From Actinomycetota bacterium (GTDB lineage Bacteria > Actinomycetota > Thermoleophilia > Gaiellales > Gaiellaceae): a DNA stretch of 64,000 nucleotides. The stretch lies in contig JBKOYJ010000028.1 in NCBI GenBank assembly GCA_046725345.1, forward strand, positions 1,300 to 65,299, read 5' to 3'. Made by a program: the position numbers and the translations under genes. Under the pieces are notes generated by a model that had not been told where the DNA came from, searched no databases, and worked only from the letters and a program-made list of their open reading frames with translations. Shown piece after piece: positions 3,055-20,600 of this stretch (positions within the stretch are counted from its first letter, which is position 1; every line of letters starts with the position of its first letter).

Positions 3055-3057
3055 TCG

Positions 3058-3411: not shown

Positions 3412-3445
3412 CGGCCCTTCTAGACTTTCTGTCGGAATCACGTAC

Positions 3446-3519: not shown

Positions 3520-3525
3520 CCTGCG

Positions 3526-3563: not shown

Positions 3564-3569
3564 CGGTAA

Positions 3570-4934: not shown

Positions 4935-5973
4935 GATTCCGCTTCCTGGCCTCGAGACACCCCCCGTCGTCACGGAGCCCACGATCGGCCACTGGCGGGA
5001 GCACGCGCCGCAGAAGCGGCTCATGCTGTTCTCCGGCCGCTCGCACCGCGACCTTGCGGAGCGGATCGGCGAGAAGCTCGGCGTCGAGCTGGGCGAGATC
5101 ACGCTGAAGACGTTCGCCGACGGCGAGACCTACTGCCGCTACGAGGAGTCGATCCGCGGCGCAGACCTCTTCCTCGTCCAGACCGGATGCGAGCCGGTCG
5201 ACCGGAACCTGATGGAGCTCCTGATCATGATCCAGGCCGCGAAGCTGGCTTCGGCGAAGCGGATCACCGCCGTCATCCCGTGGTACCCGTATTCGCGGCA
5301 GGACAAGAAATCGGCGCCCCGCGAGCCGATCACGGGCAAGCTCGTCGCCGACTTCCTGCACACGTCGGGCGTCGACCGCGTGCTCACGATGGATCTTCAC
5401 GCGGGCCAGATTCAGGGCTTCTTCACGATTCCGGTCGACCACATGACGGCGCTACCGCTGTTTTCGCAGTATTTCCGGGACCGCGGCCTCGCAGGCGATG
5501 GCGTCGTGTCCGTGGCCCCCGATGCGGGCCGAGCGAAGATGGGGGTGAAGTTCAGCCAGATGCTGGAGGGCGACTTCGCGATCATGCACAAGACTCGCCC
5601 CGGGCACGACGTCGCCCAGGTCACTGAGGTCACGGGGCGCGTCCGCGGCAAGATCGCGATCGTCGGCGACGACATCATCACGACCGGCGGAACGTTGATC
5701 TCCGGCGCGCGCGCGCTCAAGGACGCCGGCGCGACCGAGGTGCATCTCTTCGCGACACACGGACTGTTCGTCCGCGACGCGCTCGAGCGGCTGGGAGAGG
5801 CTGACGAGGTCGACAGCATCACCGTCACGGATACCGTTCCGGTCGATCTGCTGAAGCAGCCTCAGAAGGTGACCGTCCTGTCGGTGTCCGGCCTCTTGGC
5901 CGAGACGATCTGGAACGTCTTCTCGGACGAGTCCGTGTCCGCGATCTTCGCGGGCGAGAACCAGCTGTTCTAA
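4912..5973 (+). CDS. prs: Ribose-phosphate diphosphokinase
   Basis: LMLFSGRSHRDLAERIGEKLGV...ADGETYCRYEESIRG...DLHAGQIQGFF...IVGDDIITTGGTL are Prs motifs. GTG 4912 overlaps the glmU end; the ATG at 5023 is an alternative start. Confidence 0.9.
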   Translation: MADGVATEIPLPGLETPPVVTEPTIGHWREHAPQKRLMLFSGRSHRDLAERIGEKLGVELGEITLKTFADGETYCRYEESIRGADLFLVQTGCEPVDRNLMELLIMIQAAKLASAKRITAVIPWYPYSRQDKKSAPREPITGKLVADFLHTSGVDRVLTMDLHAGQIQGFFTIPVDHMTALPLFSQYFRDRGLAGDGVVSVAPDAGRAKMGVKFSQMLEGDFAIMHKTRPGHDVAQVTEVTGRVRGKIAIVGDDIITTGGTLISGARALKDAGATEVHLFATHGLFVRDALERLGEADEVDSITVTDTVPVDLLKQPQKVTVLSVSGLLAETIWNVFSDESVSAIFAGENQLF

Positions 5974-5999
5974 CGGCGTCCGCGGCCGCCGGGCTGCGT

Positions 6000-6005
6000 T
6001 ACGGT
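6000..6005 (+). promoter_or_regulatory. -10-like hexamer TACGGT, 6 nt upstream of ATG 6012
   Basis: TANNNT hexamer in the prs-epimerase intergenic region. No Shine-Dalgarno sequence lies between it and the ATG. Confidence 0.3.
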
Positions 6006-6011
6006 TCGCGG

Positions 6012-7361
6012 ATGGCCGAGTCGGCCGATCGAGCCGCCCTCGAGCCGGCCGTCGCCGATCAGCCCGCGCCTCCGTTCGCGGAGGACGAGCGCGAGCGCCT
6101 CTGCGGCGAGCTCGAAGCCGACCTGCGCCGCCACGTCATCGACGCGTGGTTCCCGCGCTGCGTCGACCATGAGCGCGGCGGGTTCTTGTGCGACTTCGAC
6201 CGCCGCTGGCGGGCCCACGGCCCCCAGCGTCGGATGCTGGAGTTCCAAGCCAGGCAGACCCGAACCGCGGCCGAGCTCGCTGTGGCGTTCCCAGCCGACG
6301 GCCGCTGGGCTGAGCTTGCGCTGCACGGCTTCCGGTACCTGCGCGAGCACATGTGGGACCGCGAGCACGGCGGTTGGTACTGGCTCCTCGACGCCTCCGG
6401 GACCCCGCTCCACCGGGCCACGAAGCACGCCCACGGAACCGCCTACGCGATCGGCTCGTGCAGCTCCGTCTTCCGCGCGACCGGCGAGCGCGCCGCGCTC
6501 GAGCTCGCGCTCGAGGGCGCCGAGTGGATCGAGCAGAAGCACCTCGACGAGGAGCACGGTGGCTACGACGGCTGGGTGACGCGGGAAGGACGGAAGATCC
6601 TCTCCGCGGATGCGGCAGGAGGACTCGCCGAACCCCTTGGCGGCCCGCTCGACGAGAAGAACGTCAACGTCCACGGCGACGTCGCACATGCCTTCTCCCT
6701 GCTCGCCGACGTCCACCGAGACGCTGGAGTCGAACGGCGTGCGGCCGCCGCCTGGGACACCCTCATCCGCCGGTTCGTGCTCGCAGACGGGGCCGTGCAG
6801 TACTCCTTCACGCGCGAGTGGAATGTCCTGCCCGAGCTCGAGCGGTTCGGCTACCCGCTCCAGATCGGACATCGCGTCCTTCAGGCGCGGAAGTTGCTGC
6901 TCGCGGCCGGTCACGATCCCATCGCGCTTGCCGGTGCGCTCGTTGGTCACGGGGTCGAACGAGGGTGGCGTGAGCCCGGAGGCATCGTCTACGCCGGGCC
7001 GGCGCGCCCGCCCGATGCAATCGAAGGCGAGCCCGTCTTCCTCTCCCGACGCAGCTGGTGGGTCCAGGCCGAAGGGCTCCACGCGTCGCTCGTCCTGAGC
7101 GCTGCACGGCCGTCGGATGGGCTGTTGCGGCAGCGCTTTCTCGACCTGCACCGGTTCGTTCGCCGTGAGCTGCTCGACCACAGGTACGGAGGCTGGCTGC
7201 AGTTCTCCCGCCACGGCGAGGCCCGGCGCGCCCGTGTCGGGCGTTTGCTCCGCCGGTCGCCTCGCAAAGGCGACGTATGGACCGACGCGTCGCACCAGAC
7301 GGACATGTATCTCGCGTGCCTCCGCACGTTGCGCGGCATCCCCGCCGACGCGCCGCTCTGA
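6012..7361 (+). CDS. AGE-family (N-acylglucosamine 2-epimerase-like) sugar epimerase/isomerase
   Basis: HERGGFLCDFDRRW...LEFQARQT...HMWDREHGGWYWLLDASGTPL...KHAHGTAYAI...DEEHGGY are repeated (alpha/alpha)6-barrel motifs typical of AGE/cellobiose-2-epimerase proteins. Confidence 0.8.
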   Translation: MAESADRAALEPAVADQPAPPFAEDERERLCGELEADLRRHVIDAWFPRCVDHERGGFLCDFDRRWRAHGPQRRMLEFQARQTRTAAELAVAFPADGRWAELALHGFRYLREHMWDREHGGWYWLLDASGTPLHRATKHAHGTAYAIGSCSSVFRATGERAALELALEGAEWIEQKHLDEEHGGYDGWVTREGRKILSADAAGGLAEPLGGPLDEKNVNVHGDVAHAFSLLADVHRDAGVERRAAAAWDTLIRRFVLADGAVQYSFTREWNVLPELERFGYPLQIGHRVLQARKLLLAAGHDPIALAGALVGHGVERGWREPGGIVYAGPARPPDAIEGEPVFLSRRSWWVQAEGLHASLVLSAARPSDGLLRQRFLDLHRFVRRELLDHRYGGWLQFSRHGEARRARVGRLLRRSPRKGDVWTDASHQTDMYLACLRTLRGIPADAPL

Positions 7362-7369
7362 GCGCCGCG

Positions 7370-8512
7370 GTGCTCGAACGGCTGCGCTTCGAGGCCGACG
7401 CCGAGAAGCTCGCGCGCGAGCGAGGGTGGGTGGTTCGCGCGTCGACGCCGGCGCGCTCGAACCGCGTCGACGTCTCGCGCACCTCCGCGGCCGGGGTGGC
7501 GGCGATGCTCGCCGCGGTCGGCCACCATCTCGACGAGCACCAGGCCGCGACGAAGCGCGGGAAGTCGGCCGCAGACGTCGAGCGCTACTACAGGGCTCTG
7601 CACTCGGTGACCCGCTACGAGACGCCGTCCACGTTCACGTGTGAGCTGCCCGACGCGCTCATCGCGGGCGACCAGGGGATCGTCGTCTCGGCCGAAGGCG
7701 ACGTCCTCGTGCAGTCGTCGCTCTACGGCGGCGCCCGTGGCGCGCGTGTCGCGCTCGCGCTCGAGGCCGACGCCGTCCGCTCACCGCAGAGGCTCGCCGG
7801 CAAGTACGTGTCACTCGTCTCGTTCGACGCCGGCAACTACGCCCACTGGCTGCTCGACTGCCTTCCGCGGCTGGATCTGCTCTCCCCGGACGACAGCAGC
7901 TGGAGCGTGCTCGTTCCCCAGGACGTCCGGCCCTTCCAGCTGGAGTCGCTGCGGCTCCTCGGGATCGCGGACGAGCGGATCGTGGCGATGCCGGCGGGCG
8001 CGATCCGGGTCGAGTCGCTGCTGTTCGCCCGCGTCGCCGGACGCACGACGCGCCCGGCGCCCGAGCATCTGCTGGCGATCCGGCGGCGGCTGCTCGACGG
8101 CGCTGGAGCCGGCGGCGAAGGCGGCGACCGCCGGCTCTACGTCTCCCGCGGCGGCGCGTCACGCGCCGTCGTCGACGAGGCGCGGCTCGCGCCAGCACTC
8201 GAGGCCCATGGCTTCGAGCAGATCCATCCGGAGACGCTCCCGCTCGCCGAGCAGATCAGGACGTTCGCCGGCGCGCGAGCGGTGCTCGGCCCTCACGGGG
8301 CGGGCATGCACAACCACCTGTTCGCGCCGGCGGGCGCCGACGTGATCGAGCTCTTCGGCCGTGGCTACCTGTATCTCACAGTGCAACGAGCCGTCGCGAT
8401 CGCCGGCCAGCGGCACTGGCACCTGTTTGGCGAACCGGCCGGCGAGGAGTACGCGACCCGCGTCGATCCGGCCGAGCTGCTCGACCTCCTGGCCCTCGTC
8501 TTCGACGTCTGA
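7370..8512 (+). CDS. Glycosyltransferase family 61 / DUF563 protein
   Basis: YAHWLLDCLPRLDLL...LYVSRGGASRAVVDEARL...GFEQIHPETLPLAEQIRTFAGARAVLGPHGAGMHNHLF is the characteristic DUF563 (GT61) C-terminal pattern. The start is taken at the first GTG after the upstream stop and is uncertain. Confidence 0.75.
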   Translation: MLERLRFEADAEKLARERGWVVRASTPARSNRVDVSRTSAAGVAAMLAAVGHHLDEHQAATKRGKSAADVERYYRALHSVTRYETPSTFTCELPDALIAGDQGIVVSAEGDVLVQSSLYGGARGARVALALEADAVRSPQRLAGKYVSLVSFDAGNYAHWLLDCLPRLDLLSPDDSSWSVLVPQDVRPFQLESLRLLGIADERIVAMPAGAIRVESLLFARVAGRTTRPAPEHLLAIRRRLLDGAGAGGEGGDRRLYVSRGGASRAVVDEARLAPALEAHGFEQIHPETLPLAEQIRTFAGARAVLGPHGAGMHNHLFAPAGADVIELFGRGYLYLTVQRAVAIAGQRHWHLFGEPAGEEYATRVDPAELLDLLALVFDV

Positions 8513-8587
8513 CGCCTCTGAGGGCGCACTTCGAGCGACGCTGCCGCTTGCCGTCTGACTGCACGGACGCCAAGATGACGTCCTTCG

Positions 8588-9034
8588 ATGTCGTCGCCGA
8601 CCGCTGAGAGCCGCTTTCGAAGCCATCCGCGCGTCGTCCACGAGACCATCGAGGGAGAAGTCATCCTGATCCAGATCGAGACGGGCTACTACTACAGCCT
8701 CGGGGGCTCGGGAGCACGGATCTGGCGGCTCCTGGAGCAGGGGCGCTCGCTCGAGGAGGTCGCAGCCGCGCTCGAGCGGACGCACGGGGGAAGCCCAGAG
8801 ATCCGCCCGGCGGTCGCGCGGCTGATCGAAGAGCTCCAGAACGAGACGTTGCTCGAGCCGGCCACGGCTCGGCCCGACGTGTCGGTCGGCGGCGACGACA
8901 CCGAGGCGTCCGAGGTCGCGGGGTCCTTCGTCCCGCCGCTGCTCGAGCGGTACGAGGACATGCAGGACTTCCTGCTCGTGGATCCGATCCACGAGGTCGA
9001 CGACTCGGGCTGGCCCAACAAGAAGACGGCTTGA
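8588..9034 (+). CDS. PqqD-family protein (RiPP recognition element fold) with a ~55 aa acidic C-terminal extension
   Basis: RVVHETIEGEVILIQIETGYYYSLGGSGARIWRLLEQGRSLEEVAAALERTHGGSPEIRPAVARLIEELQNETLL matches the PqqD pattern (beta strands, then a helical bundle). Confidence 0.75.
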   Translation: MSSPTAESRFRSHPRVVHETIEGEVILIQIETGYYYSLGGSGARIWRLLEQGRSLEEVAAALERTHGGSPEIRPAVARLIEELQNETLLEPATARPDVSVGGDDTEASEVAGSFVPPLLERYEDMQDFLLVDPIHEVDDSGWPNKKTA

Positions 9035-10116
9035 CGCGTGTGGGCTCGCACACGCTCGCCGACCGGCGTGACGGGCTCGAGGCGGCCCCGCACGGCACGG
9101 CTCGGGACTACTTCGCGTCGCTGCGGGAGGGATTCGACGCCGCTGTAGCGGCACGCGGCATTCGAACGTACGAGCTTGCCCTCGCCGGCGCCGCGGTACG
9201 CCTGCGGTTCGCGGGCGCCGCTCTGCCACCGGTCGTCATCCGGCCGCTGGCCCAGCTCCCCCGCCCGGTCGGCGACGACCGCGCCGCGACGGCCTGCCTG
9301 TGGGACAGCGAGTCGACGGGGATCGCGCTGCCCGAGCCGCCGTGGCAGCGCCGCGACATCGATCAGCGCTGGGAGGTTCACGGGTTCGGCGACGAGGGGA
9401 TCCAAACGCAGCACGATCCGGAGGCCGGCGTCCTGACGATGTTCGAACCGGCGACCCGCACGGGGATCTGGTGGGCGCCCTCGGTCGCCGCGGTGCCCTG
9501 GTACGACCAGGCTGCGCCACTACGCACGCTTCTGCACTGGACGGTCACGGTGCCAGGCCGCCATCTGCTCCACGCCGGCGCGGTCGCGGTCGCCAACGGC
9601 GCTGCGCTCCTCGTCGGCAAGGGAGGCTCCGGCAAGTCGACGACGGCCGTCCTCTGCCTCGAGGCGGGGTTCGACTACCTCGGCGACGACTACGTCTTGC
9701 TCACGGTGGACCCGGCGCCGACCGTGCACAGCGTGTACAGCACGGCGAAGGTCACGCCGTACACCGTTCGCCGCCTCCCCAGCCTCGAGGCAGCCGTCGT
9801 CGCTCGCGGGCGGCCGTTCGAGAAGAGCGTGGTCGACGTCGCGGCGTACCGCCCGCGCCGGCTGCGCCATTCCGCACCCCCGGCTGCCGTCGTCGTGCCC
9901 ACGGTCACGCCGGGCGAGCGCACGCGGCTGCGCCCGATCGCTGCGGCAGCGTGCCTGCGCGCGCTTGCTCCAAGCACCGTGCTCCAACTCCCGCACGAAG
10001 GCGGCCGGGCACTGAGCGCGATGGCCGAGCTCGTCCGCGAGCTCCCGGCCTACGCGCTCGATCTCGGGGACGACGGCGCGGATGTTCCGGCGCTCCTCCA
10101 CCCGCTCCTGGCGTGA
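9031..10116 (+). CDS. HPr kinase C-terminal-domain-like P-loop protein (HprK-related kinase)
   Basis: LLHAGAVAVANGAALLVGKGGSGKSTTAVLCLEAGFDYLGDDYVLL is the Walker A plus following LGDD motif seen in HprK-like serine kinases of RiPP clusters. The TTG start overlaps the PqqD stop (TTGA). Confidence 0.7.
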   Translation: MTRVGSHTLADRRDGLEAAPHGTARDYFASLREGFDAAVAARGIRTYELALAGAAVRLRFAGAALPPVVIRPLAQLPRPVGDDRAATACLWDSESTGIALPEPPWQRRDIDQRWEVHGFGDEGIQTQHDPEAGVLTMFEPATRTGIWWAPSVAAVPWYDQAAPLRTLLHWTVTVPGRHLLHAGAVAVANGAALLVGKGGSGKSTTAVLCLEAGFDYLGDDYVLLTVDPAPTVHSVYSTAKVTPYTVRRLPSLEAAVVARGRPFEKSVVDVAAYRPRRLRHSAPPAAVVVPTVTPGERTRLRPIAAAACLRALAPSTVLQLPHEGGRALSAMAELVRELPAYALDLGDDGADVPALLHPLLA

Positions 10117-11234
10117 CCGTCGGGGGCGAACACCACGCACGCGTGCTCGTCGTGGACGAGCGCGTGCCGAGGCCCGATCGCGACGGGGGCTCGCTGCGAA
10201 TGGCGAATCTCCTTCGGGTCCTCACGCAGATGGGCCACGACGTCAGCTTCGCCGCGCAGTTCCCGCGCGCCGGCGACCCGCGCGGTCTCGCCGAGAGCGA
10301 CGGCGTTCGATTGGTGTGGGACGAGCGGCCGCTCGTCCATCTCCGAAGGGCTGGGCGACGGTACGACGCCGTGATCCTCAGCCGCCCTGAGGTGGCCGTG
10401 GAGCTCGTCAAGGCCGTCCGGCGCTTCGCGCCCCGGGCGCTGATCCTCTACGACACCGTCGACCTGTCGTTCGTGCGCGAGTTCCGTCTCGCGAAGCTTC
10501 GCCGAAGCCGCTTTCTGCTCGACGTCGCCCTGCGGCGGCGCAGACAGGAGCTGAGCCTCGTTCGCGCTGCCGACCGGACGCTCGTCGTCAGCGAGCGCGA
10601 GAAGCAGGTGCTCGAGGAGGCGTGTCCGGGCGCGGCCGTCCATGTCGTCTCGAACGTCCACGAGAGCGCGGGAGCGAAGCGCGGCTTCGGCGAGCGCTCG
10701 GGTGCACTCTTCGTCGGCAACTTCGGCCACGAGCCGAACGCCGACGCGATGCGTCATCTCGTCGAGGACGTCTGGCCCGTTGTCCGTGCGAGCAGGCACG
10801 GGCTCGAGCTGCACGTCGTCGGCGGCGAACCGCCGGACTGGCTCCTGGACCTCGGCGCGACGGACGTCCACGTCGCCGGCTGGGTCGACCACGCGACGCT
10901 CGAGGAGTACCTCCAGCGCTGCCGCCTGTCGGTGGCCCCGCTGCGCGCCGGCGCCGGCGTCAAGGGGAAGGTGCTCGCCAGCCTCGGGAGCGGTCTTCCG
11001 GTTGTCGGTTCCGCGATTGCGTTCGAGGGCATCCCGGTCGCGGATGGGCACGAGGTGCTGGTCGCGGACGACCCGGCAACCTTCGCCCGCGCCGTCGCTC
11101 GCCTCCACGACGACGAGCGGCTCTGGACCGAGCTCTCGGAGCGCGGTGTGGCGGTCGTCGCGGAGCGCTTCTCCTCGGGGGCGGCGAAGGCTGGTCTCGC
11201 CGCCGCGCTGGCTCCGGTGGAGGCGCTGGCATGA
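10113..11234 (+). CDS. Glycosyltransferase, GT4 (Glycos_transf_1) type
   Basis: HARVLVVDERVP...GGSLRMANLLRVL at the N-terminus. C-terminal ...VAPLRAGAGVKGKVLASLGSGLPVVGSAIAFEGI... is a retaining GT-B E(x7)E-like region. GTG overlaps the previous stop. Confidence 0.85.
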   Translation: MTVGGEHHARVLVVDERVPRPDRDGGSLRMANLLRVLTQMGHDVSFAAQFPRAGDPRGLAESDGVRLVWDERPLVHLRRAGRRYDAVILSRPEVAVELVKAVRRFAPRALILYDTVDLSFVREFRLAKLRRSRFLLDVALRRRRQELSLVRAADRTLVVSEREKQVLEEACPGAAVHVVSNVHESAGAKRGFGERSGALFVGNFGHEPNADAMRHLVEDVWPVVRASRHGLELHVVGGEPPDWLLDLGATDVHVAGWVDHATLEEYLQRCRLSVAPLRAGAGVKGKVLASLGSGLPVVGSAIAFEGIPVADGHEVLVADDPATFARAVARLHDDERLWTELSERGVAVVAERFSSGAAKAGLAAALAPVEALA

Positions 11235-11911
11235 CGGGCCCGCTCGTCAGCGCGATCATCCCCGCCCATGAAGGCGAGCGGTTCCTCCACGCCGCGATCG
11301 GGAGCGTTCTGGCGCAGGAGTACACCCCGCTGGAGGTGATCGTCGTCGACGACGGGTCGACGGACGGCAGCGCCGATGTCGCGGCATCGTTTCCCGTCCG
11401 GTGCCTCCGTCAGCCGAACCTCGGCGTGGCGGCAGCGCGAAACGCGGGGCTCGCAGCCGCCGGCGGCGAGGTGATCTCCTTTCTCGACCAGGACGACCTC
11501 TGGCCACCCGCCAAGCTCGCCGTCCAGGTCGGGCATCTGCTCGAGCATCCCGAGCTCGGGTTCGTCGTGGGCCGGATGGAGGTCTTCCTGGAGCCCGGCG
11601 CACCGCGGCCGGCCTGGATGCACGTCGACCAGCCGGCGTTCTTGCTCGGGGCGCTCGTCGCGTGGCGACACGTGTTCGACCTGGTCGGCGCGTTCGAGAC
11701 GGGATACACGGTCTCGAGCGACGCGGACTGGTTCGCACGTGCGAAGGACGCCGGGATCCCGCGCGCGGTCCTGCCCGAGGTCGTCCTCCGCTATCGCATC
11801 CACGAGCAGAACGCGTCGCACAGACGCGACGTGCTCTGGCACGAGACGATGCAGGTGCTCCGACGCTCGGTGGAGCGCCGGCGTGCGGGGCAGGCGGCCG
11901 ATGGCGACTGA
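11231..11911 (+). CDS. Glycosyltransferase family 2
   Basis: VSAIIPAHEGERFLHAAIGSVLAQEYTPLEVIVVDDGSTDGS...ARNAGLAAAGGEVISFLDQDDLW is the canonical GT2 DxD region. ATG overlaps the previous stop (ATGA). Confidence 0.85.
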   Translation: MTGPLVSAIIPAHEGERFLHAAIGSVLAQEYTPLEVIVVDDGSTDGSADVAASFPVRCLRQPNLGVAAARNAGLAAAGGEVISFLDQDDLWPPAKLAVQVGHLLEHPELGFVVGRMEVFLEPGAPRPAWMHVDQPAFLLGALVAWRHVFDLVGAFETGYTVSSDADWFARAKDAGIPRAVLPEVVLRYRIHEQNASHRRDVLWHETMQVLRRSVERRRAGQAADGD

Positions 11912-12581
11912 CTCGGTCTCGGTCGTCATCCCCGTTCGGAACGGCGCACGCTACCTGGGCGCGGCGATCGAGAGCGTGCTGGCGCAGACGACGTCTCCTT
12001 TGGAGCTGATCGTCGTTGATGACGGCTCGACTGACGCGAGCGTCGAGGTGGCTGCGGAGTACGCGGCCGTCCGCGTCGTCTCACAGGCACACGCTGGCCC
12101 CGGCGCGGCGCGAAACCGCGGCGTCGAGCTCGCGGGCGGCGCGTACGTCGCGTTCCTCGACGCGGACGACGTCTGGGTCGAGACGAAGCTCGAGCGCCAG
12201 CTCGCCGCCTTCGCAGCCCAGCCGTCGGCGGACGTCGTGGTCGGATATGTCCGCCACTTCGCGGGCCACCGGCCGCCCGACGACGATGGCGACGGGGACC
12301 CGGGTGAGCTCCGACCGGGCTACCTGCCGAGCGCGGTCCTTCTGTCGCGCTCGGCGTGGCAGGCCGTCGGCCCGTTCCGGACGGACCTGCGTGTTGCAGA
12401 GCTCATGGACTGGCTCCTGCGTGCCCGCGAGCTCGGTCGCCGCGAACTCGTGGTGCCCGATCACGTCGTCTGGCGCCGGGTCCACGGTGAGAATCTCACG
12501 ATCGTGGAGCGCGCGAGCCTGGGCGAGTACGCGCACATCCTCAAGGGAGCGCTCGACCGCCGGCGCGAGGCGGCCCGCTAA
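11901..12581 (+). CDS. Glycosyltransferase family 2
   Basis: VSVVIPVRNGARYLGAAIESVLAQTTSPLELIVVDDGSTDAS...ARNRGVELAGGAYVAFLDADDVW. 11 nt overlap with the preceding GT2. Confidence 0.85.
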   Translation: MATDSVSVVIPVRNGARYLGAAIESVLAQTTSPLELIVVDDGSTDASVEVAAEYAAVRVVSQAHAGPGAARNRGVELAGGAYVAFLDADDVWVETKLERQLAAFAAQPSADVVVGYVRHFAGHRPPDDDGDGDPGELRPGYLPSAVLLSRSAWQAVGPFRTDLRVAELMDWLLRARELGRRELVVPDHVVWRRVHGENLTIVERASLGEYAHILKGALDRRREAAR

Positions 12582-14269
12582 TGCGCACGTGGCTCCTCTT
12601 CGCGCGCCTGTTCGCCGACTCCAAGCATCTGCTCCTCGTCAGCCTCGTTCTGTCGCTCGCGCAGTCGCTCGTGCTGGTGCCGATCGCGCTCCTCGTGCGG
12701 CACGCATTCGACGTCATCCTCCCGGCGGGCGATCGTCTCGAGCTCGCGTGGATCGCTGCGCTGATGCTCGCGCTCTACCTGACGAGCATCGCACTCGCGC
12801 TGCTGACGCGCCACACCGTCCTGCAGGCGACGAAGGCGGCCGTGACCAAACTTCGCGTTCGCCTGTTCGAGCGCCTCTTCTCCTTTCCGGCGTCGTACTA
12901 CGACGCCCACGACGTCGGCACGCTTCACGCGACGATCACCAAGGACATCGAGCGCTTCGACCTCATGACCTACGCGGTCGTCGCGTTCATCCTGCCGCCG
13001 TTCGTGATCGCCACCGCGCTGTCGGCGGCGCTCGTCACCGTCAGCCCGATCCTCTTCCTCGTACTCGCCCTCGCCCTGCCCGTCATGGGCGTCGCGAGCC
13101 ACGTCATGGGCGGGCAGGTGCGCTCGCGCTCGCGCGAGTGGCAGGAGGCGTACGCAGTCTTCAGCTCGGATGCCCTAATCACCCTCAGGGCGATGACGTT
13201 GCTGAAGGTCCACGCCCTCGAAGACGTGCGCCTGCAACGCGCCGCCGTGCTGTTCGAAGAGCTCGCGCGGACCGGCCGGAGACTCAGCTGGATGCAGTCG
13301 GCGTACTCGCTCATCAACGGCTCGCTCGCCGCCGCCGCGGGGGTCCTCGTCCTCGTCGTGGGCGGGATCGCGGTGATCGACGGCCGGATGACGCTCGGCG
13401 AGCTGCTCTCCTTCTACTCGCTGCTCGCGCTGCTCCGGTCGCAGCTGACGAGCGTGATGTGGGGGGCGCCGATCGCCGTGGCCGGACGGGAGTCGCTCGA
13501 GCGCCTGCGGGCGCTCCTGCTTGCGTCCGAGCGCGACCCGTACCGGGGAACGTCTGTGATCGACTTCACCGGGGCGATCGACGTCGAGCACGTGACGTTC
13601 GGATATCGGAATGGAGACGAGCCCGTGCTGCGGGACGTGACGGTGTCCCTGCGACCGGGCGAGGTGGTGGCCTTGATCGGACCGAACGGGGCGGGGAAGA
13701 GCACGCTCGCGCGGCTCGCCGTCGGCCTCTACAAGCCTCAGCGCGGACGTGTTCTGGCCGACGGGATCCCGCTCGACGAGCTCGATCTGCACGCGCTGAG
13801 GCGGCGGATCGCCGTCGTCGACCAGGACCCGTTCATCTTCCCGACGACGGTTCGCGAGAACATCGCGTTCGGCGCCGAAGGCGGCAGCGAGGAGCAGATC
13901 CGCGCCGCGGCCGCCGCCGTTGGGGTTGACACGTTCGCGGAGACGCTGCCGGATGGCTACGACTCGCAGGTCGGCGACGAGGGCGCGCTTCTCTCGGGCG
14001 GCGAGCGTCAGCGGGTCGCGATCGCCCGGGCGCTCGCGCGCCGCCCGGCGCTGCTCGTGCTCGATGAACCGACCTCGTCTCTCGACCCTGACGCCGTGGA
14101 GCAGTTGCTCGCGAACCTGCACGAATTCCCCGGGTCGCCCGCCGTCCTCGTTATCACCCACGACCCCTCGCTCGTGGGTGCGGCGGATCGGGTCTACGTG
14201 CTCCGAGAGGGGAGGGCTGTCGGGACGGTCGCCCCGCCGGTGCCGACGGCCGCCGAGGACGAGGCGTGA
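12581..14269 (+). CDS. ABC exporter, fused transmembrane and ATP-binding domains (MsbA/MdlB-like)
   Basis: Six-helix N-terminal half, then GPNGAGKSTLARL (Walker A), LSGGERQRVAIARAL (signature), LLVLDEPTSSLD (Walker B), ITHD (H loop). Confidence 0.9.
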   Translation: MRTWLLFARLFADSKHLLLVSLVLSLAQSLVLVPIALLVRHAFDVILPAGDRLELAWIAALMLALYLTSIALALLTRHTVLQATKAAVTKLRVRLFERLFSFPASYYDAHDVGTLHATITKDIERFDLMTYAVVAFILPPFVIATALSAALVTVSPILFLVLALALPVMGVASHVMGGQVRSRSREWQEAYAVFSSDALITLRAMTLLKVHALEDVRLQRAAVLFEELARTGRRLSWMQSAYSLINGSLAAAAGVLVLVVGGIAVIDGRMTLGELLSFYSLLALLRSQLTSVMWGAPIAVAGRESLERLRALLLASERDPYRGTSVIDFTGAIDVEHVTFGYRNGDEPVLRDVTVSLRPGEVVALIGPNGAGKSTLARLAVGLYKPQRGRVLADGIPLDELDLHALRRRIAVVDQDPFIFPTTVRENIAFGAEGGSEEQIRAAAAAVGVDTFAETLPDGYDSQVGDEGALLSGGERQRVAIARALARRPALLVLDEPTSSLDPDAVEQLLANLHEFPGSPAVLVITHDPSLVGAADRVYVLREGRAVGTVAPPVPTAAEDEA

Positions 14270-15387
14270 TGCGAGCGGGTGGACACGCCTTCCCGACCTT
14301 CCGCCAGGAGGCGCTGATCCGGGCGGCCGTCCTCGAGGGCGATGCGGCGAGGTCGGCCTGGAAGCAGTGGCTGGCGCTCGGCGGCAACGTCGATCGGATC
14401 GACGGCGCGTCCTACGGGCTGTTGCCGCAGGTGTACCGGAACCTCGAGGCGATCGCTCCGGAGGAACCCCTGCTCGCGAAGCTCAAGGGTGTCTACCGCT
14501 ATCACTGGTACCGCAACCAGGTGCTGCTCCACGGCGCTGCCGATGCCGTCCGCGCGCTCGAGGCGGCCGGCGTTCCGACCCTCGTGCTGAAGGGGGCGGC
14601 GCTCGCGATCCTCCACTACGGCGACGCGGGCGCGCGCCCGATGGAGGACGTTGACGTGCTCGTCCCGCGGGAGCGCGTGCACGAAGCGATGGAGGTTGTG
14701 CGGCAGGCAGGCTTCGCCTCCGTGCCTGCCACACCGGCGACGTCGGTCGGCGTCGGGCACGCGCGCACGTTCCTCTCCGGGGCCGACCACTCGCTCGACC
14801 TCCACTGGTGGGCGCTCGCGCAGGCGGCGCGCGACGACGACTTCTGGCGGGGCGCGGTCCCGCTGGCGCTCGCAGGGGTGCGGACGCGCGCGCTCGCGCC
14901 CGCGCACCAGCTCCTGCACGTGTGCGTGCACGGCTTGCGGATCCACGAGACGCCGCCGCTGCGCTGGGTGCCCGACTCCTTGCTCGTGCTGCGCTCGCCC
15001 GGCGGCGAGGTCGACTGGGAGGCGCTGGTCGCCGGGGCTCGTGCCCGCGCGCTCACGGTCCACGTCGGAGCGGCGCTCACGTACCTTCGGGAGAGGTTCG
15101 CGGCGCCCGTGCCGCCGCAGGTGCTCGATCGCCTGCGGACCTCGCCGAGCTCGCTGCTCGAGCGCTGGACGTACCGCGCGAGCGTGATGCCTCCGCCCCG
15201 CGCCGCGCGCGTCCTTCTCCACGTCGATCGGTACCGAAGGCTGCGAGCGGCCGGCGACCTCGAGCCGGGGACCTCGTTCCTGCGCTTCTGGGCGCGCTCG
15301 CGCGCACTGGAGCACCCCGCGCAACTCCCGGCGCAGGTGCTCCGCCGGTACGTCGAGCACCTCCGTGCGCGGAGCGCTACGTCCTGA
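14266..15387 (+). CDS. Uncharacterised nucleotidyltransferase family protein (NTP_transf_5 / PF14907-like)
   Basis: LLPQVYRNL...VLKGAALAILHYGDAGARPMEDVDVLVPRERVHEAMEVVRQAGF...LDLHWW is the pattern of PF14907-type proteins found next to PqqD/HprK-like genes. Confidence 0.65.
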   Translation: MMRAGGHAFPTFRQEALIRAAVLEGDAARSAWKQWLALGGNVDRIDGASYGLLPQVYRNLEAIAPEEPLLAKLKGVYRYHWYRNQVLLHGAADAVRALEAAGVPTLVLKGAALAILHYGDAGARPMEDVDVLVPRERVHEAMEVVRQAGFASVPATPATSVGVGHARTFLSGADHSLDLHWWALAQAARDDDFWRGAVPLALAGVRTRALAPAHQLLHVCVHGLRIHETPPLRWVPDSLLVLRSPGGEVDWEALVAGARARALTVHVGAALTYLRERFAAPVPPQVLDRLRTSPSSLLERWTYRASVMPPPRAARVLLHVDRYRRLRAAGDLEPGTSFLRFWARSRALEHPAQLPAQVLRRYVEHLRARSATS

Positions 15388-15401
15388 GCTCAGAGCCTTT
15401 T

Positions 15402-15503
15402 CGGTTGGTGTCCGGGCGTGTCGACCGGTCACCTCAGACGCGTGCACGGGCCAAGCCCGTGCACGCTGAATGTCGGCGCCGCCGAGTCGGGGCCTTTAGG
15501 GCG
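15402..15503. repeat. Structured intergenic repeat, family A, copy 1 (~100 nt)
   Basis: About 90 % identical by eye to 36660..36758. Core hairpin gcgtgcacgggc-caa-gcccgtgcacgc (12 bp). Lies between convergent genes and supplies the TAA stop of the minus-strand GT2. Confidence 0.8.
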
Positions 15504-16209
15504 ACGCGTGGCGCCTGCGGTCGATCCTTCCTTTCAGCGCCCGGACCGCCTCGCGCTGGCAGCTCTCGACGTCGTAGGTCAGGTTCGCCCCGTGTATGCG
15601 CCTGACGACGACGACGTCGTCGAGGATCCCGACCCCGACGTCGCCGTCCTGGGCACGGAAGAGCCAGTCGACGTCCTCGGCGTAGCGGAACGACGCGTCG
15701 AAGGGGCCGATCCGCTCGAGGGCCGTCCTCCGAACGAGCGCCGACATCGGCTGCACGAGCTCGGATTCGCCGCCGTCGACGCCCGCCTTCCCGACCCATT
15801 CTGGCGGCTCGACACCCGGCTCGACGGCGATGCGCTGGCGGCCGAGGACGCAGGCGTATTCCGGCCGCTCGCGGAGGTAGGCGACCTGCCGCTCGAGCCG
15901 GTCCGGAAGCATCACGTCGTCGGCGTCCAGGAAGGCGACGTACTCGCCTGTCGCCGCGGCGACACCGCGGTTCCGCGCCGCGGCCTGCCCGGCGCGTTCC
16001 TGCCGAAGGCCATGGACGTTCGGATACGACGCGATGATCTCAGGTGTCCGATCCGTCGACCCGTCGTCGACGACGACGATCTCGACGGTCGGATACGTCT
16101 GCGCGAGCACGCTGTCGATCGCCTCCGCGAGGAAGCGGGCGCCGTTGAAGACCGGAGTCACGACGGAGACGAGCGTCGGCACGGCGCGTGATGACGGCGA
16201 GCTCCGCAC
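15496..16209 (-). CDS. Glycosyltransferase family 2
   Basis: VSVVTPVFNGARFLAEAIDSVLAQTYPTVEIVVVDDGSTDRT...ARNRGVAAATGEYVAFLDADDVM. Confidence 0.85.
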   Translation of the reverse strand: MRSSPSSRAVPTLVSVVTPVFNGARFLAEAIDSVLAQTYPTVEIVVVDDGSTDRTPEIIASYPNVHGLRQERAGQAAARNRGVAAATGEYVAFLDADDVMLPDRLERQVAYLRERPEYACVLGRQRIAVEPGVEPPEWVGKAGVDGGESELVQPMSALVRRTALERIGPFDASFRYAEDVDWLFRAQDGDVGVGILDDVVVVRRIHGANLTYDVESCQREAVRALKGRIDRRRHASP

Positions 16210-16256: not shown

Positions 16257-16985
16257 GTGGCCGAGCGCGTTCGCATCCAGGCGCAGGAGCGCGACACCCG
16301 CGGGTCCCGCGAGTCGCGTCGCCTCCGTCGCGCAGGGAAGATCCCAGGCGTGATCTACGGGCGCGGCCGCGATCCGCACGCGATCTGCATCGACGAGCGC
16401 GAGCTCCGGCGTGCGCTCAGCGGCCCGGGCGGCCTGCACGCGATCCTCGACGTCGTACTCGACGGCGGAAGCCCGAGCCCGGCCGTCCTGAAGGACTATC
16501 AGCAGCATCCGATCCGCGGGACCCTTACGCACTTCGACCTCCACGCCGTGCGCCTGGACGAGCCGATCCAGGCCACCGTGGTCGTCCAGCTCGTCGGCGA
16601 GTCGGCGGGAGCGAAGGAGGGCGGCGTGCTCTCGCAGGTCACGCGCGAGCTCAACGTCCAGGCGCTGCCGATGGACATTCCCGAGCACATCGACGCCGAC
16701 GTCAGCGAGATGCACATCGGCGACACGCTCCGGCTCGCCGACCTGCCGGCGATCGAGGGCGTGACGTTCCTCGACGACCCGGAGGAGACGGTGCTGGCAA
16801 CGGTGACGCAGCCGACTCGCGTCGAGCTGCCCGAGGACCTCGTCGAGGAGGAGGCCGAGGAGGGCGAAGAGGGCGAAGTCCCCGAAGGTGAGGAGGCTCC
16901 CGAAGGCGCGACGGAGACCGCCGCCGCTCCCGGTGCGCTCCCTGCCTCGGACGACGAGGGCGAGTCCGGCACGACGTCCGGCTAG
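16257..16985 (+). CDS. rplY: 50S ribosomal protein L25 / general stress protein Ctc, with acidic C-terminal tail
   Basis: RGSRESRRLRRAGKIPGVIYGRG...HAILDVVLDG...VLKDYQQHPIRGTLTHFDL is the Ctc-type L25 pattern. Confidence 0.9.
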   Translation: MAERVRIQAQERDTRGSRESRRLRRAGKIPGVIYGRGRDPHAICIDERELRRALSGPGGLHAILDVVLDGGSPSPAVLKDYQQHPIRGTLTHFDLHAVRLDEPIQATVVVQLVGESAGAKEGGVLSQVTRELNVQALPMDIPEHIDADVSEMHIGDTLRLADLPAIEGVTFLDDPEETVLATVTQPTRVELPEDLVEEEAEEGEEGEVPEGEEAPEGATETAAAPGALPASDDEGESGTTSG

Positions 16986-16991
16986 CCAGCT

Positions 16992-17585
16992 ATGCGCCTG
17001 TTTCGGCGGGGCGAGACCGCCCCGTCGCTCGACTTGCTGGTGGCGGGCCTCGGCAATCCAGGACGGGAGTACGAGCGCAACCGGCACAACGTCGGCTGGA
17101 TGGTCGCCGAGGAGCTCGCGCGGCGGCACGGCGGCTCGTGGCGCGGAAAATTCTCCGGACGGCTGGCCGAGGTGCGCGTGGACGGCAATCGTGTCGCGCT
17201 GTTGAAGCCGGAGACGTACATGAACGAATCGGGCCGCTCGGTCGGCGCCGCCCTGCGCTTCTTCAAGCTTCCGCCGGAGGGTCTGCTGGTGGTGCACGAC
17301 GAGGGCGACCTCGATCTCGGCCGGCTGCAGGCGCGCCGCGGCGGCGGTCTCGCCGGCCACAACGGGCTGCGCTCGGTCGCGGGGCAGCTGGGAACGCCGG
17401 AGTTCCTCCGCCTGCGTGTCGGCGTGGGCCGTCCCGAGCGCGGCGATCGCCGCTCGCTCTCCGACTTTGTGCTCTCCGACTTCGAGCCCGGGGACGACGC
17501 CGAGGGCGTCGTCGCGCGCGCGGCGGACGCGGTCGAGACGGTCGTCCGCGACGGCCTCGAGGCCGCCCAGCAGCGCTACAACTGA
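16992..17585 (+). CDS. pth: Peptidyl-tRNA hydrolase
   Basis: LLVAGLGNPGREYERNRHNVGWMV...LLKPETYMNESG...VVHDEGDL...GGLAGHNGLRS. Confidence 0.9.
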   Translation: MRLFRRGETAPSLDLLVAGLGNPGREYERNRHNVGWMVAEELARRHGGSWRGKFSGRLAEVRVDGNRVALLKPETYMNESGRSVGAALRFFKLPPEGLLVVHDEGDLDLGRLQARRGGGLAGHNGLRSVAGQLGTPEFLRLRVGVGRPERGDRRSLSDFVLSDFEPGDDAEGVVARAADAVETVVRDGLEAAQQRYN

Positions 17586-17629
17586 CGGCTAGACTGGCTG
17601 CCCGCGAGACGCACGTCTCGTCAGTCGTC

Positions 17630-20600
17630 ATGGACCGGCCGGCCCTCCATCCGCTCGTGCGCGAGCTCGCCGAGAGCGAGCGCCTTGGCGCGTTCGCGGA
17701 CGCGCTCCCGGCGCGCGCGCGTGTGTCCGAGCCGGCGCTGCCGCTCGTCGTCGCCGCCCTCCACGAGCGGCTCACGCGCGCGCTCGTTGTCCTCACCGCC
17801 GACGACGCCGACGCGCGCGACCTCGCCGAGGCGTGCGGCTGGCTGGTCGGCGGTGACCGCGTCGCCCTGCTACCGAGCCGCGGCGTGCGCTGGGACTCGG
17901 GCCTCGCGCCGCCGCCGCATCTCGTCGGCGAGCGGGCGCGCGCACTGGACGTCTTCGCCTCGAGCGGCCTCGTCTGCGCCTCGGCCACGGCGCTGGCGGA
18001 GGGCATGCCGCCCACGCGCGCGCGACCGGCGCCGATCAGGCTCTCGGTCTCGGACGAGACCGGCCTGGAGGGCGTGGCCGAGAAGCTCGCCCTCGCGGGA
18101 TACGAGCGGGTCGAGCGGGTCGACGAGCGTGGCCAGTTCGCGGTTCGCGGAGGGCTGCTCGACGTCTTCCCGACGACCGGGCGCGAGCCGCTGCGCGTCG
18201 AGCTCTTCGGGGACGAGGTGGAGTCGATCCGCGCGTTCTCGCCGTTCACGCAGCGCGCTCTCCACGCCGTCGACGAGGCGGTCGTCTACCCGGCCGCGGA
18301 ACGCCGGCTCGACCTCGTGGAGCCGAGCCTCGACGACGAGACGACGAGGGCCCCGACGGACCTCGTTCCGCCGCTCGACCGACGGCCCGACCTCGTCTGG
18401 CAGGCCGACGACGTGCGCGAGGCCTGGCGCGAGGAGGGCTACGCCGAGCTGCCGCTCGACGGCTCGGCCGAGCTCGAGCCGTTGCCCCGCGGGCAGGCGT
18501 ACACGTTCGAAGCCCAGAGGCCGGCGCTCGCCGCGCGCGGCCTCGCGGAGGCGGAGAACGAGCTCGCCGCGCTCGTCCGGGCGGGCTTGCGCGTGGTCGT
18601 CGCCTTCCCGCACCGGGGCGACGCGCTGAGGACGCGCGGCCTCCTGCGGAGGCTCGACGCCCGCGTGCTCGAGCCGGGCGAGGGGTTGCCGAGACGTCCT
18701 GAGCTCGTCTTCGCCGTCGCGCCGGCACGGCGCGGCTTCGTCTGGCGGGAGCTCGGCCTCGCGCTGCTGCCCGACGTGCAGGTGTTCCGCAAGCGGCCCC
18801 CTCGCGCGGATGCGCGGCTCGGGCGCGCGCTCCAGACGTTCGCCGACCTGCGCGCGGGCGACCACGTCGTGCACGAGGACCACGGGATCGGCAAGCTGCT
18901 CGGCTTCGAGACGAAGACGGTCGCAGGCGTCACGCGCGACTACCTGCTGCTCGCCTTCCGGGGCGACGACCGCCTCTATCTCCCGCACGAGCAGCTCGGC
19001 AAGCTCTCGCGCTACATCGGCGCTGACGGCCGCGCCCCCGCGCTCTCGAAGCTCGGCGGGAAGGCGTGGCAACTGCTCAAGAGCCGTGCGCGCGAGTCGG
19101 TCCGGGAGCTCGCCGGCGAGCTGCTCGCGCTCTACGCGCGTCGCCAGCAGGCCGAAGGCACGCCGTTCGAGCTCGACGGCGACTGGCTCGAGCGGCTGGA
19201 AGCGTCGTTTGCCTTCCGCGAGACCGACGACCAGCGGCGCGCGATCGAGGCGGTGAAGGAGGACCTCGAGGCGCCGCGCCCGATGGACCGGCTCGTCTGC
19301 GGCGACGTCGGCTTCGGCAAGACCGAGGTCGGCGTCCGGGCGGCCTTCGCCGTCGCCGTCAACGGCAAGCAGACGCTGCTGCTCGCGCCGACGACGATCC
19401 TCGCCGAGCAGCACTGGCACACCTTCCGCGAGCGGTACCGCGACTTCCCGGTCCGCGTGGAGATGATCTCGCGCTTTCGCTCTCCCGCCGAGGCGAAGCA
19501 GGTGCTGCGCGACTTCGCGGAGGGCAAGGTCGACGTGCTGATCGGGACGCACCGCGTGCTCTCGCGCGACGTCATCCCGAAGAACCTCGGCCTGGTGATC
19601 CTCGACGAGGAGCAGCGGTTCGGGGTCGCGCAGAAGGAGCTCTTGCGCTCGCTGCGGCTCGAGGTGGACGTGCTCGCGCTCTCGGCAACCCCGATCCCGC
19701 GCACGCTGCACATGTCGCTCTCGGGGCTCCGCGACATCTCGGTGATCGAGACGCCGCCCGAGGGCCGCCGGCCGATCCGCACGCATGTCGGGGAGTACGA
19801 CGAGGAGCTGATCAGGACCGCGCTCGAGCGGGAGCACGCCCGCGGCGGCCAGTCCTTCTACCTCCACAACCGCGTGGACACGATCGACGAGGCGGGAGCC
19901 AAGCTCCAGCAGCTCTGCCCCGGCCTCCGCATCCTCGTTGCCCACGGGAAGATGCGGGAGCGCGAGCTCGAGGAGCGGATGCATTCGTTCCTGCGCGGCG
20001 ACGCCGACGTACTGGTCTCGACCACGATCATCGAGTCCGGCCTCGACATCCCACAGGCCAACACGCTGGTCGTCGAGCGATCGGACGCGCTCGGCCTTGC
20101 CCAGCTCTATCAGATCCGCGGCCGCGTCGGCCGGTCGGATCGCGTGGCCTACGCCTATCTGCTCTATCCCGACGCGCACGAGCTGACGCCCGAGGCGCGC
20201 GCGCGGCTGGCGACGCTCGCCGACCACACGGAGCTCGGCGCGGGCTTCTCGATCGCGATGCGCGACCTCGAGATCCGCGGCGCCGGCGAGCTGCTGGGCG
20301 CCGAGCAGCACGGGCACGTGGCGGCCGTCGGCTTCGAGCTCTACGTCGAGATGCTCAACGAAGCCGTCGCGGAGCTGTCCGGCCAGCGGCGCGCTGCGGC
20401 GCGTCCGGTACGCGTGGACGTGCGCGTCGACGCCTACATCCCGGCGTCGTACATCGGCTCGGAGGCGCTCAAGATCGACCTCCACCGACGGCTCGCGCTG
20501 GTCGAGGACGAGGACGAGCTGCGCGAGCTACGCGCGGCGACGGAGGACCGCTTCGGACCGGTGCCCGATGCGGTGCAGAACCTGTTCGCGATCCAGGAGG

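Follow-up and report, generated by a model that had tools for sequence, protein, structure and literature searches.

A 64,000-nucleotide (nt) stretch of an Actinomycetota genome (Thermoleophilia; Gaiellales; Gaiellaceae; assembly GCA_046725345.1, contig JBKOYJ010000028.1, forward strand, positions 1,300–65,299), hereafter the window, carries one member of a large, conserved, widespread and so far unnamed gene cassette. In the window the cassette joins a PqqD-family protein, built around a recognition element (RRE) for peptides that are ribosomally synthesized and then post-translationally modified (RiPPs), to an HprK-like P-loop kinase, glycosyltransferases (GTs), an ATP-binding cassette (ABC) exporter and a PF14907 nucleotidyltransferase. 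The RRE protein ends in a conserved, leader-like tail, and this tail may be the apparently missing precursor of the locus, fused to the RRE. We read the cassette as a phospho-glycosylation and export pathway that acts on the RRE's own tail and resembles the Linear Polyphosphorylated Peptide (LPP) systems, a cyclase-less family of Bacillota (Popov et al., Nat Commun 2026, PMC13381572); we put the probability of this reading at roughly 0.5.

Seven same-strand genes between positions 8588 and 15387 are chained by start/stop overlaps, namely TTGA at 9031, GTGA at 10113, ATGA at 11231, an 11-nt overlap at 11901–11911, TAATG at 12581 and GTGATG at 14266. They encode, in order, the PqqD/RRE protein, the kinase, a GT4, two GT2 enzymes, the exporter and the PF14907 enzyme. 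Window GC is about 72%, so genes were called by third-position GC, which is 0.86–0.91 for the open reading frames (ORFs) of the chain in these frames. An earlier note made from the letters of the window alone had proposed this coupled chain, and all of its ORFs and junctions are present. Families were assigned with Pfam against the gathering threshold (GA) and with NCBIfam against curated cutoffs, and Pfam was run on 20 window genes between positions 1 and 32219; it supports the PqqD, PF14907, GT61, AGE, GT4, ABC and all three GT2 assignments that the note had made. The features are as follows.

6012–7361, forward strand: AGE-family (GlcNAc 2-epimerase/cellobiose 2-epimerase-like) enzyme; Pfam GlcNAc_2-epim, 82 bits; accessory
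7277–8512, forward strand: GT61/DUF563 glycosyltransferase; Pfam Glyco_transf_61, 88 bits; lineage-specific accessory
8588–9034, forward strand: PqqD-family RRE protein, 148 amino acids (aa); Pfam PqqD, 52 bits (GA 23.4)
8612–8860, forward strand: RRE domain, residues 9–91; predicted three-strand, three-helix winged-helix fold (AlphaFold2, Foldseek)
8861–8926, forward strand: variable linker, residues 92–113, acidic and Ser/Thr/Pro-rich; low conservation, predicted local distance difference test (pLDDT) about 58
8927–9031, forward strand: conserved C-terminal tail, residues 114–148, FVPPLLERYEDMQDFLLVDPIHEVDDSGWPNKKTA; defined by the family consensus; candidate cis leader and substrate
9031–10116, forward strand: HprK-like P-loop kinase of the phosphoenolpyruvate carboxykinase (PEPCK) fold, 361 aa; family profile, AlphaFold2, Foldseek
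9616–9642, 9571–9573 and 9685–9693, forward strand: kinase sites Walker A, His181 and D219-D220-Y221, respectively
10113–11234, forward strand: GT4 glycosyltransferase; Pfam Glyco_trans_1_4, 79 bits; frequent accessory
11231–11911, forward strand: GT2a, small soluble GT2 of 226 aa with a DQDD motif; Pfam Glycos_transf_2, 112 bits; core
11901–12581, forward strand: GT2b, small soluble GT2 of 226 aa with a DADD motif; Pfam Glycos_transf_2, 115 bits; core, usually last of the GT2 tandem
12581–14269, forward strand: ABC exporter of the MsbA/McjD type with fused transmembrane and nucleotide-binding domains (TMD-NBD); Pfam ABC_membrane and ABC_tran, above GA
14266–15387, forward strand: PF14907 (NTP_transf_5) nucleotidyltransferase-fold enzyme; Pfam, 132 bits (GA 31); G...DVD metal motif intact
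15496–16209, reverse strand: GT2c, third small GT2, 237 aa; Pfam Glycos_transf_2, 135 bits; convergent with the operon

The order PqqD, kinase, (GT4), GT2, GT2, (GT2), (ABC), PF14907 is shared by about 120 loci, which are spread over about 18 phyla. Carriers lie in the Actinomycetota (Thermoleophilia, including Solirubrobacterales and Gaiellaceae, and Acidimicrobiia), the Cyanobacteria (including Oscillatoria sp. PCC 10802, Coleofasciculus and Halomicronema), Acidobacteriota, Planctomycetota, Chloroflexota, Thermodesulfobacteriota, Patescibacteria, Margulisiibacteriota, Ignavibacteriae, Verrucomicrobiota, Myxococcota, Rokubacteria, Eisenbacteria, Binatia, Abditibacteriota and WOR-3, with one gammaproteobacterial and one clostridial metagenome-assembled genome (MAG). 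Two samples were analysed. One is anchored on the kinase and comprises 83 loci (79 fetched genome loci, three with precomputed Pfam annotation and the window) with flanks of up to 10 kb per side, many contigs being shorter; the other starts from the tailed PqqD protein in contigs of metagenomes, with at least 439 confirmed matches, and 44 of its loci, each with at least 1.3 kb downstream, were usable for a kinase check.

With the window proteins as queries, the census of the 83 kinase-anchored loci found PqqD in 83, a small GT2 in 81, PF14907 in 67, the ABC exporter in 32, an AGE homolog inside or beside the cassette in 12, GT4 of the window subtype in nine and GT61 in one, the window itself. 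Of the 62 loci having at least 6 kb downstream, 54 contain PF14907, and the kinase was found in 40 of the 44 PqqD-anchored loci. Clustering over the 83 loci yielded 201 GT2 ORFs, typically two or three in tandem behind the kinase, and a GT2b-type gene in 69 of 78 GT2-bearing loci. In about 24 of the 83 the kinase is followed by a GT4, which comes in two subtypes, the second accounting for 15. The only other recurrent families in an all-versus-all ORF clustering of these loci are NAD-epimerases, SDRs, TPR-sulfotransferases and methyltransferases; in locus L090 a further GT61 is located 4 kb upstream of the gene for the tailed PqqD protein. The tandem small GT2 genes are therefore core members, GT4 is a common accessory, AGE an occasional one, and GT61 occurs at one locus besides the window. 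The earlier note was right about a coupled unit without the lasso C and B2 genes, but its description of an orphan module wired into a glycosyltransferase operon misleads, as the GT2 genes belong to the core of a widespread conserved cassette.

Natural fusions tie the components together further. GT2-kinase (P0372, P0456), kinase-GT2 (P0463) and ABC exporter-kinase (P0484, with a complete exporter) proteins occur, as do kinase-O-methyltransferase fusions (PF01596/PF13578; P0023, P0024, P0049), and in L001 and the Solirubrobacterales loci PF14907 and an ABC-2 permease form one protein. The kinase-GT2, exporter-kinase and nucleotidyltransferase-permease fusions argue for one membrane-associated modification and export complex. 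Five Solirubrobacterales MAGs (L039, L051, L071, L072, L082) have a second, paralogous kinase, their genes running kinase, GT2, PqqD-tail, kinase, GT2, GT2, PF14907; their PF14907 ORF is about 700 aa long, the size of the L001 product that Pfam identifies as a PF14907/ABC-2 permease fusion.

The PqqD proteins of the cassette are about 140–160 aa long, versus about 90 aa, and fall into three parts: RRE, linker and tail. The AlphaFold2 model of the window protein, computed from 60 sequences, has a mean pLDDT of 84, with RRE residues 11–90 at 94–97 and a disordered linker. Its best fold matches in the PDB are lasso B1 proteins with leader complexes, TbiB1 (5v1v/5v1u; 33–36% identity, template-modelling (TM) score 0.77–0.86) and 6jx3. 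The NCBIfam model lasso_PqqD_Bac is the best match for 60 of 60 family members, and TIGR04353 touches two of the 60, the window protein not among them. By predicted fold and by sequence the RRE is nearest to the lasso B1 type, and leader binding is predicted.

The tail was aligned from genome and metagenome PqqD copies, with residue counts over 118 sequences and the numbering of the window protein. Its consensus is F..P.L.KYTDMQ.LLLLDPIHEVDE.GWP, followed by 3–13 variable residues, and it is more conserved than the RRE domain; the window copy reads F114-VPPLLERYEDMQDFLLVDPIHEVDDSGWPNKKTA-148. Residues D132, P133, H135, G141 and P143 are invariant, P117, D124, M125 and W142 are at least 90% conserved, and column entropies indicate strong purifying selection. 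The tail opens with [Y/W/F]xxPx[L] (first position F in 93, W in 14 and Y in 7 of the 118 sequences), the type of motif that serves for recognition in lasso and LPP leaders (PMC13381572). It is found exactly once per locus, always at the PqqD C-terminus. AlphaFold2 places a β-strand at residues 118–122, and the block 111–120 has a mean pLDDT of 93. The top pairs in a mutual-information comparison of RRE and tail columns join I26/L27 of strand β2 to F128/V131 (z 5–7, uncorrected for phylogeny), a suggestive coupling. The PqqD tail is a candidate for both substrate and cis leader. Where the earlier note had seen no precursor, there is indeed no separate small ORF, but the PqqD protein itself carries this leader-like segment.

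The kinase lies below every curated family threshold. The window protein reaches 15.9 bits with Hpr_kinase_C (GA 33.3) and 38.7 bits with TIGR04352 (HprK_rel_A; cutoff 200); the motifs GKGGSGKST and LGDDY are present. Among 92 family kinases, NCBIfam reports HprK_rel_B for 91, HprK_rel_A for 89 (best family-wide E-value 9e-16) and HPr(Ser) kinase for 55, all far under the curated cutoffs, and we accordingly treat the protein as an HprK-like P-loop kinase whose family has no name. Its full-length relatives, more than 1,100 in number (about 350–365 aa, 35–50% identity), are labelled just 'hypothetical' or 'serine kinase'; in an exhaustive profile search the 50%-identity representatives number 3,139 at E≤1e-30 and 8,247 at E≤1e-10. 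Precomputed matches to Pfam ScmC (PF27840) are faint and NCBIfam ScmC (TIGR04249) is weakly matched by five of the 92 kinases; this candidate, whose name points to SynChlorMet, was set aside.

HprK/P shares the P-loop fold of ATP-dependent PEP carboxykinase. The AlphaFold2 kinase model, computed from the 92-sequence alignment, has a pLDDT of 92 and a predicted TM score (pTM) of 0.89, and among PDB structures Foldseek matches it best, across both domains, to ATP-dependent PEP carboxykinases (E about 1e-10, query-normalised TM score 0.52–0.58). Compared with PDB sequences, the family profile instead finds the HprK/P chains 1jb1, 2qmh, 1ko7 and 1knx best (E 1.5e-5 to 7e-4) across residues 171–223, a segment that holds His181, the GKGGSGKST P-loop and D219-D220, the last aligned to the HprK/P 'ADD' motif. 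Membership of the HPr kinase/phosphorylase family itself is not supported, with Hpr_kinase_C below threshold and no phosphotransferase system (PTS) genes nearby; the catalytic His, P-loop and DD are conserved. The HprK-C-like label of the earlier note is borne out by superfamily and catalytic motifs and misses the curated thresholds, and at that superfamily and catalytic-motif level the sequence comparisons support an HprK-like P-loop kinase.

No lasso cyclase accompanies these genes. Asn_synthase is absent from the 20 scanned window genes and the SGGxDS PP-loop from every frame of the 64-kb window; across the 83 loci, no ORF longer than 300 aa contains a PP-loop motif and no family of about 600 aa recurs. 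The same 20 genes include no protease family, S24/S26 signal peptidases among them. Six intact cassettes with Pfam annotation (L001, L002, L003, L083, L089, L090) likewise lack Asn_synthase, a transglutaminase-type (B2) protease and S24/S26 families; the peptidase families near them (M14, faint M19, M48) are non-recurrent. A B2-type protease is not among the recurrent neighbour families of the 83 loci, and a scan of these loci with a crude regular expression for the SipW-type peptidase motif found none. The window cassette, flanked by housekeeping genes, is without cyclase and protease, as the earlier note had it, and the related loci hide neither nearby in the 83 kinase-anchored and 44 PqqD-anchored cases checked. 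A cyclase or protease always just outside the equivalent region is not what we find; the cyclase-less state is the norm across loci.

A separate precursor gene has no intergenic room between 6.0 and 16.2 kb, where the gaps are 76, 109 and 48 nt. Apart from one spurious antisense ORF, no small ORF of the window carries [Y/W]xxPx[L], no conserved small-ORF family accompanies the cassette in the 83 loci, and the window holds no LppA-like ORF with YxxPxVLxHQxIxFETxxS, its sole leader-like motif being the FxxPxL inside the PqqD tail. A search with the tail profile alone returned 227 short proteins of 31–81 aa. The inspected cases on long contigs comprise a split by an in-frame stop (L083), a frameshift split (L086), a disruption by an insertion sequence (IS; L085), a fragmented locus (L084) and decayed loci (L087, L088). 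In L083 (7680–8138, from a nanopore-derived assembly) an 88-aa RRE and a 45-aa tail starting MSNVPYAPPAL are set apart by one in-frame stop and 18 codons; the split could be a genuine RRE plus precursor or a sequencing error. L087 (4296–8846) and L088 show a decayed relative in two independent samples. Its tail is a 45-aa ORF of its own that lacks the RRE, and its kinase, with an SFPLR repeat, is broken into two parts; a GT2, an APH-family kinase and PF14907 are also there, and a Wzx-like flippase and a GT87 adjoin it.

From these data we infer both the acceptor, namely the tail, and the chemistry, phosphorylation and then glycosylation. The 148-aa PqqD protein would fold as a lasso-B1-type RRE whose own tail supplies the FxxPxL strand in cis, so that the remaining invariant tail would be presented to the enzymes. 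The P-loop kinase would phosphorylate the tail using ATP, and the PF14907 and GT2 enzymes would build on it a short, probably phosphate-linked glycan. The analogy is pseudomycoidin, in which PsmK phosphorylates the C-terminal Ser and the PF14907 protein PsmN is required for adding one or two hexoses to the phosphate, its authors being undecided between a glycosyltransferase and a supplier of substrate to host glycosyltransferases (PMC6993621). In this genome the AGE, GT4 and GT61 enzymes may add or supply further sugars, and the ABC exporter would remove the product.

A more specific form of this proposal is a self-leadered RiPP-like system, with the precursor fused to the RRE that binds its FxxPxL start, and the DM..LLLLDPIHEVDE.GWP end turned by the PEPCK-fold kinase, the PF14907 enzyme and dedicated GT2 enzymes into one conserved phospho-glycosylated product (such as a cofactor, signal or surface anchor) in about 18 phyla; we offer it tentatively and would, on balance, not expect it to hold. 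The tail could possibly release itself at Asp-Pro-x-His. The motifs N|PTH and GD|PH are autocleavage sites, which the invariant D-P-x-H resembles, and self-cleavage there could, speculatively, explain the absence of a protease.

Several observations weigh against modification and export of the tail. The tail has no invariant Ser/Thr in the 118 sequences. Its best hydroxyl candidate, the residue after Tyr122, is T/S in 87 and E/D in 22 of them, and the window has E there, yet its kinase is intact; beyond GWP, where just 3–13 variable residues remain, Ser/Thr is found in only 66 of the 118 tails. The tail is also far more conserved than a typical RiPP core. AlphaFold2 is uncertain for residues 123–148 (pLDDT 54–74), and the tail strand would dock on RRE strand β3 according to a DSSP strand assignment and pLDDT alone. 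An exporter of this type is unlikely to carry a folded RRE, the cassette has no protease, its accessory genes are all sugar-related, and the stand-alone tail peptides inspected were unconvincing as separate precursors. The PF14907 enzyme of the LPP system, LppN, was silent in a heterologous host, where its authors suspected a missing partner (PMC13381572). Finally, a variant in Pseudomonadota (L090, GCA_042571045, 641–12746) has no kinase and runs GT61, cellulase, ABC, PqqD-tail, GT2, TPR protein, GT2, PF14907 and a 726-aa GT2. In its tail HKEM replaces Y[T/S/E/D]DM and LLLVDPIHEV..GWP is retained, which, from this single case, hints that the YxDM segment goes with the kinase.

Some of the same observations would suit a different role for the RRE-tail protein, that of a subunit with a structural or regulatory task. 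Its own pseudo-leader would fill the RRE groove, and its DPIHEVDE.GWP end would dock onto the kinase and GT2 enzymes and activate them. The acceptor would then be a sugar, oligosaccharide or lipid-linked glycan rather than a peptide, and the ABC protein would export a phosphorylated or nucleotide-activated glycan. We regard this as possible but doubtful. A tail near-invariant across phyla and devoid of an invariant hydroxyl residue speaks for it, as do the lack of a protease, the resemblance of the kinase over both domains to PEPCK, a small-molecule kinase, and accessories that are all sugar-related (AGE, GT4, GT61, NAD-epimerase, SDR, sulfotransferase, methyltransferase). Several lineages join PF14907 to a Wzm-like ABC-2 permease in one protein, the NBD being separate, and some loci adjoin exosortase/PEP-CTERM, Wzx-like flippase/GT87 or cellulase genes. 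Against it, a priming phosphoglycosyltransferase, a flippase or polymerase (Wzx/Wzy), a chain-length regulator and a Wzm/Wzt pair are all missing from the 20 scanned window genes, and none of them recurs across the loci. The nearest proteins to the RRE are of the lasso B1 type, genuine leader binders, and we know of no RRE shown to act outside peptide maturation. The only demonstrated substrates of the kinase/PF14907/exporter set, moreover, are peptides (PMC13381572, PMC6993621).

If the acceptor is a peptide, it could still be encoded elsewhere in the genome, with the tail auto-inhibiting or tuning the RRE; in LPP and paeninodin the precursor, with its [Y/W]xxP leader, is indeed a separate one, the window covers only 64 kb of this genome, and the PqqD gene of L001 has an exosortase and a PEP-CTERM protein about 3–8 kb upstream. 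We consider a precursor in trans unlikely, given that neither a conserved small-ORF family in the 83 loci nor, the spurious antisense ORF aside, a [Y/W]xxPx[L] small ORF in the window was found, that the tail motif never occurs in a second copy and that a cis-bound leader mimic would compete with a leader in trans. The L001 genes (exosortase EpsH, EpsI and the PEP-CTERM protein, 1583–6370 of a 2.3-Mb contig) show no recurring association in the clustering of the 83 loci. Decay of a lasso or LPP cluster after loss of cyclase, protease and precursor, leaving no coherent function, is an explanation to which we give almost no credence. Some relatives are indeed decaying, as the split kinase without RRE in L087/L088 and the IS insertion in L085 show, but a cyclase-less architecture kept in about 120 loci of about 18 phyla effectively refutes it, and the window genes are translationally coupled, with intact catalytic motifs, high third-position GC (0.86–0.91) and a tail under strong purifying selection.

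Around the operon, the genes upstream of the RRE were correctly named in the earlier note, but their order is corrected here to AGE (6012–7361) and then GT61 (7277–8512). The GT61 start codon is uncertain because the ORF from the first ATG overlaps the end of AGE by 85 nt (7277–7361); its Pfam domain starts only at residue 188, and the true start is probably further downstream. GT4 has TIGR03087 as its top NCBIfam match, under that model's cutoff. GT2c is 40–46% identical to GT2a and GT2b, and its counterpart is the first GT2 of related actinobacterial cassettes, where it directly follows the kinase (L031, L054, L057, L069, L070, L078). A PDB sequence search with GT2a returned generic GT-A enzymes alone (such as heparosan/chondroitin synthases and PglI), which is uninformative on the acceptor, and one with the PF14907 protein returned no relative.

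The cassette forms an island between housekeeping genes, with metG, ksgA, tRNA-Gln, glmU and prs on one side (1–5973) and rplY, pth, mfd, a SurA-like peptidyl-prolyl isomerase, mazG and pyruvate kinase (pyk) on the other (16257–25541). The composition profile over the island shows no clear GC anomaly. The tRNA-Gln (anticodon TTG; 3446–3519, forward strand) lies between glmU and a 118-aa ORF (3055–3411) without a Pfam match, and was the single match of Rfam and ARAGORN over the whole 64-kb window; a promoter and terminator scan of 5.8–16.4 kb gave nothing useful. About 12 kb downstream stand a MerR-HTH/receiver response regulator (27374–27979), a PAP2 phosphatase (27980–28573) and a 932-aa GAF-SpoIIE (PP2C) phosphatase (29421–32219), for which a link to the cassette is not established.

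If the tail is indeed modified and exported, the phosphopeptide chemistry of paeninodins and LPPs would extend from the Bacillota to the Actinomycetota, Cyanobacteria, Acidobacteriota, Planctomycetota, Chloroflexota, Patescibacteria and others. Glycosyltransferases would become explicit partners of the PF14907 enzyme, whose role in pseudomycoidin and LPP is unresolved. The proposal also gives a concrete, testable answer to the missing-precursor problem, and an RRE fused to its own leader-like peptide would be a new RiPP-recognition architecture, one that we did not find in the searchable literature. The cassette is of practical interest because it is widespread, unannotated and open to a testable hypothesis: its kinase and tailed PqqD families are currently annotated as 'hypothetical' or 'PqqD family protein', and Oscillatoria sp. 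PCC 10802, Coleofasciculus sp. H7-2 and Halomicronema sp. CCY15110 are culturable carriers.

Among known systems, the HPr-rel-A system pairs a PqqD-family chaperone with an HprK-related P-loop kinase. Its models TIGR04352 and TIGR04353 (PqqD_rel_X), together with kinase B (TIGR04355), resemble the present set through the sub-threshold kinase matches (89–91 of 92); the window kinase, however, stays far from the TIGR04352 cutoff (38.7 versus 200), and TIGR04353 is matched by two of 60 PqqD-tail proteins. With HprK/P the kinase shares a P-loop core aligned at the conserved His, GxxGxGKS[T/E] and DD, but it lacks the HprK/P N-terminal domain and the HPr/PTS context and is 361 rather than about 310 aa long. 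PEP carboxykinase is closest in whole-protein fold, over both domains, at 10–13% identity and about 530 aa. No Pfam or NCBIfam model captures the kinase family, and the tailed PqqD family has no curated model, its PqqD domain itself being above the Pfam GA; that kinase and RRE otherwise fall below every curated family cutoff is one further difference from LPP.

The paeninodin and pseudomycoidin lasso clusters are nearer in gene content. They share with the cassette the RRE subtype (lasso_PqqD_Bac, lasso B1 folds), an HprK-like kinase (PadeK, PsmK), a PF14907 enzyme (PsmN) and an ABC exporter, whereas the cassette has no Asn-synthetase-like cyclase, B2 protease or separate precursor and contains GT2 genes in 81 of 83 loci. 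Literature searches on the cassette, the tail motif and PF14907 turned up the lasso and LPP papers and no further description.

The closest overall parallel is LPP, whose set comprises the SipW-type SpI peptidase LppS, the RRE LppB, the HprK-like kinase LppK, the NTP transferase LppN and the MsbA-like exporter LppD; its precursors, one to three separate genes of 35–200 aa, carry YxxPxVLxHQxIxFETxxS, LppK polyphosphorylates Ser3 of the core, the loci are often embedded in polysaccharide loci, and both LPPs and paeninodins are described as Bacillota-restricted (PMC13381572). Like LPP, the present cassette is cyclase-less, has a [Y/W]xxPx[L/V]-type leader motif, frequently stands in glycosyltransferase or polysaccharide surroundings and combines a stand-alone RRE, a kinase of the HprK-like kind, an NTP transferase and an exporter resembling MsbA; for the kinase the likeness holds at the level of catalytic core and superfamily. 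Unlike LPP, the window cassette has neither an SpI leader peptidase nor separate precursors. Its leader-like motif is fused to the RRE C-terminus and followed by an invariant segment not found in LPP, its core includes two or three small GT2 enzymes that in some cases are fused to the kinase, and the cassette spans about 18 phyla rather than the Bacillota alone. The pathway suggested in the earlier note is undescribed in so far as this cassette is distinct from LPP, although a cyclase-less family of this kind was published in 2026 (PMC13381572). Judged by sequence, the cassette is akin to the tailoring and export set of lasso peptides and LPPs, yet distinct from LPP.

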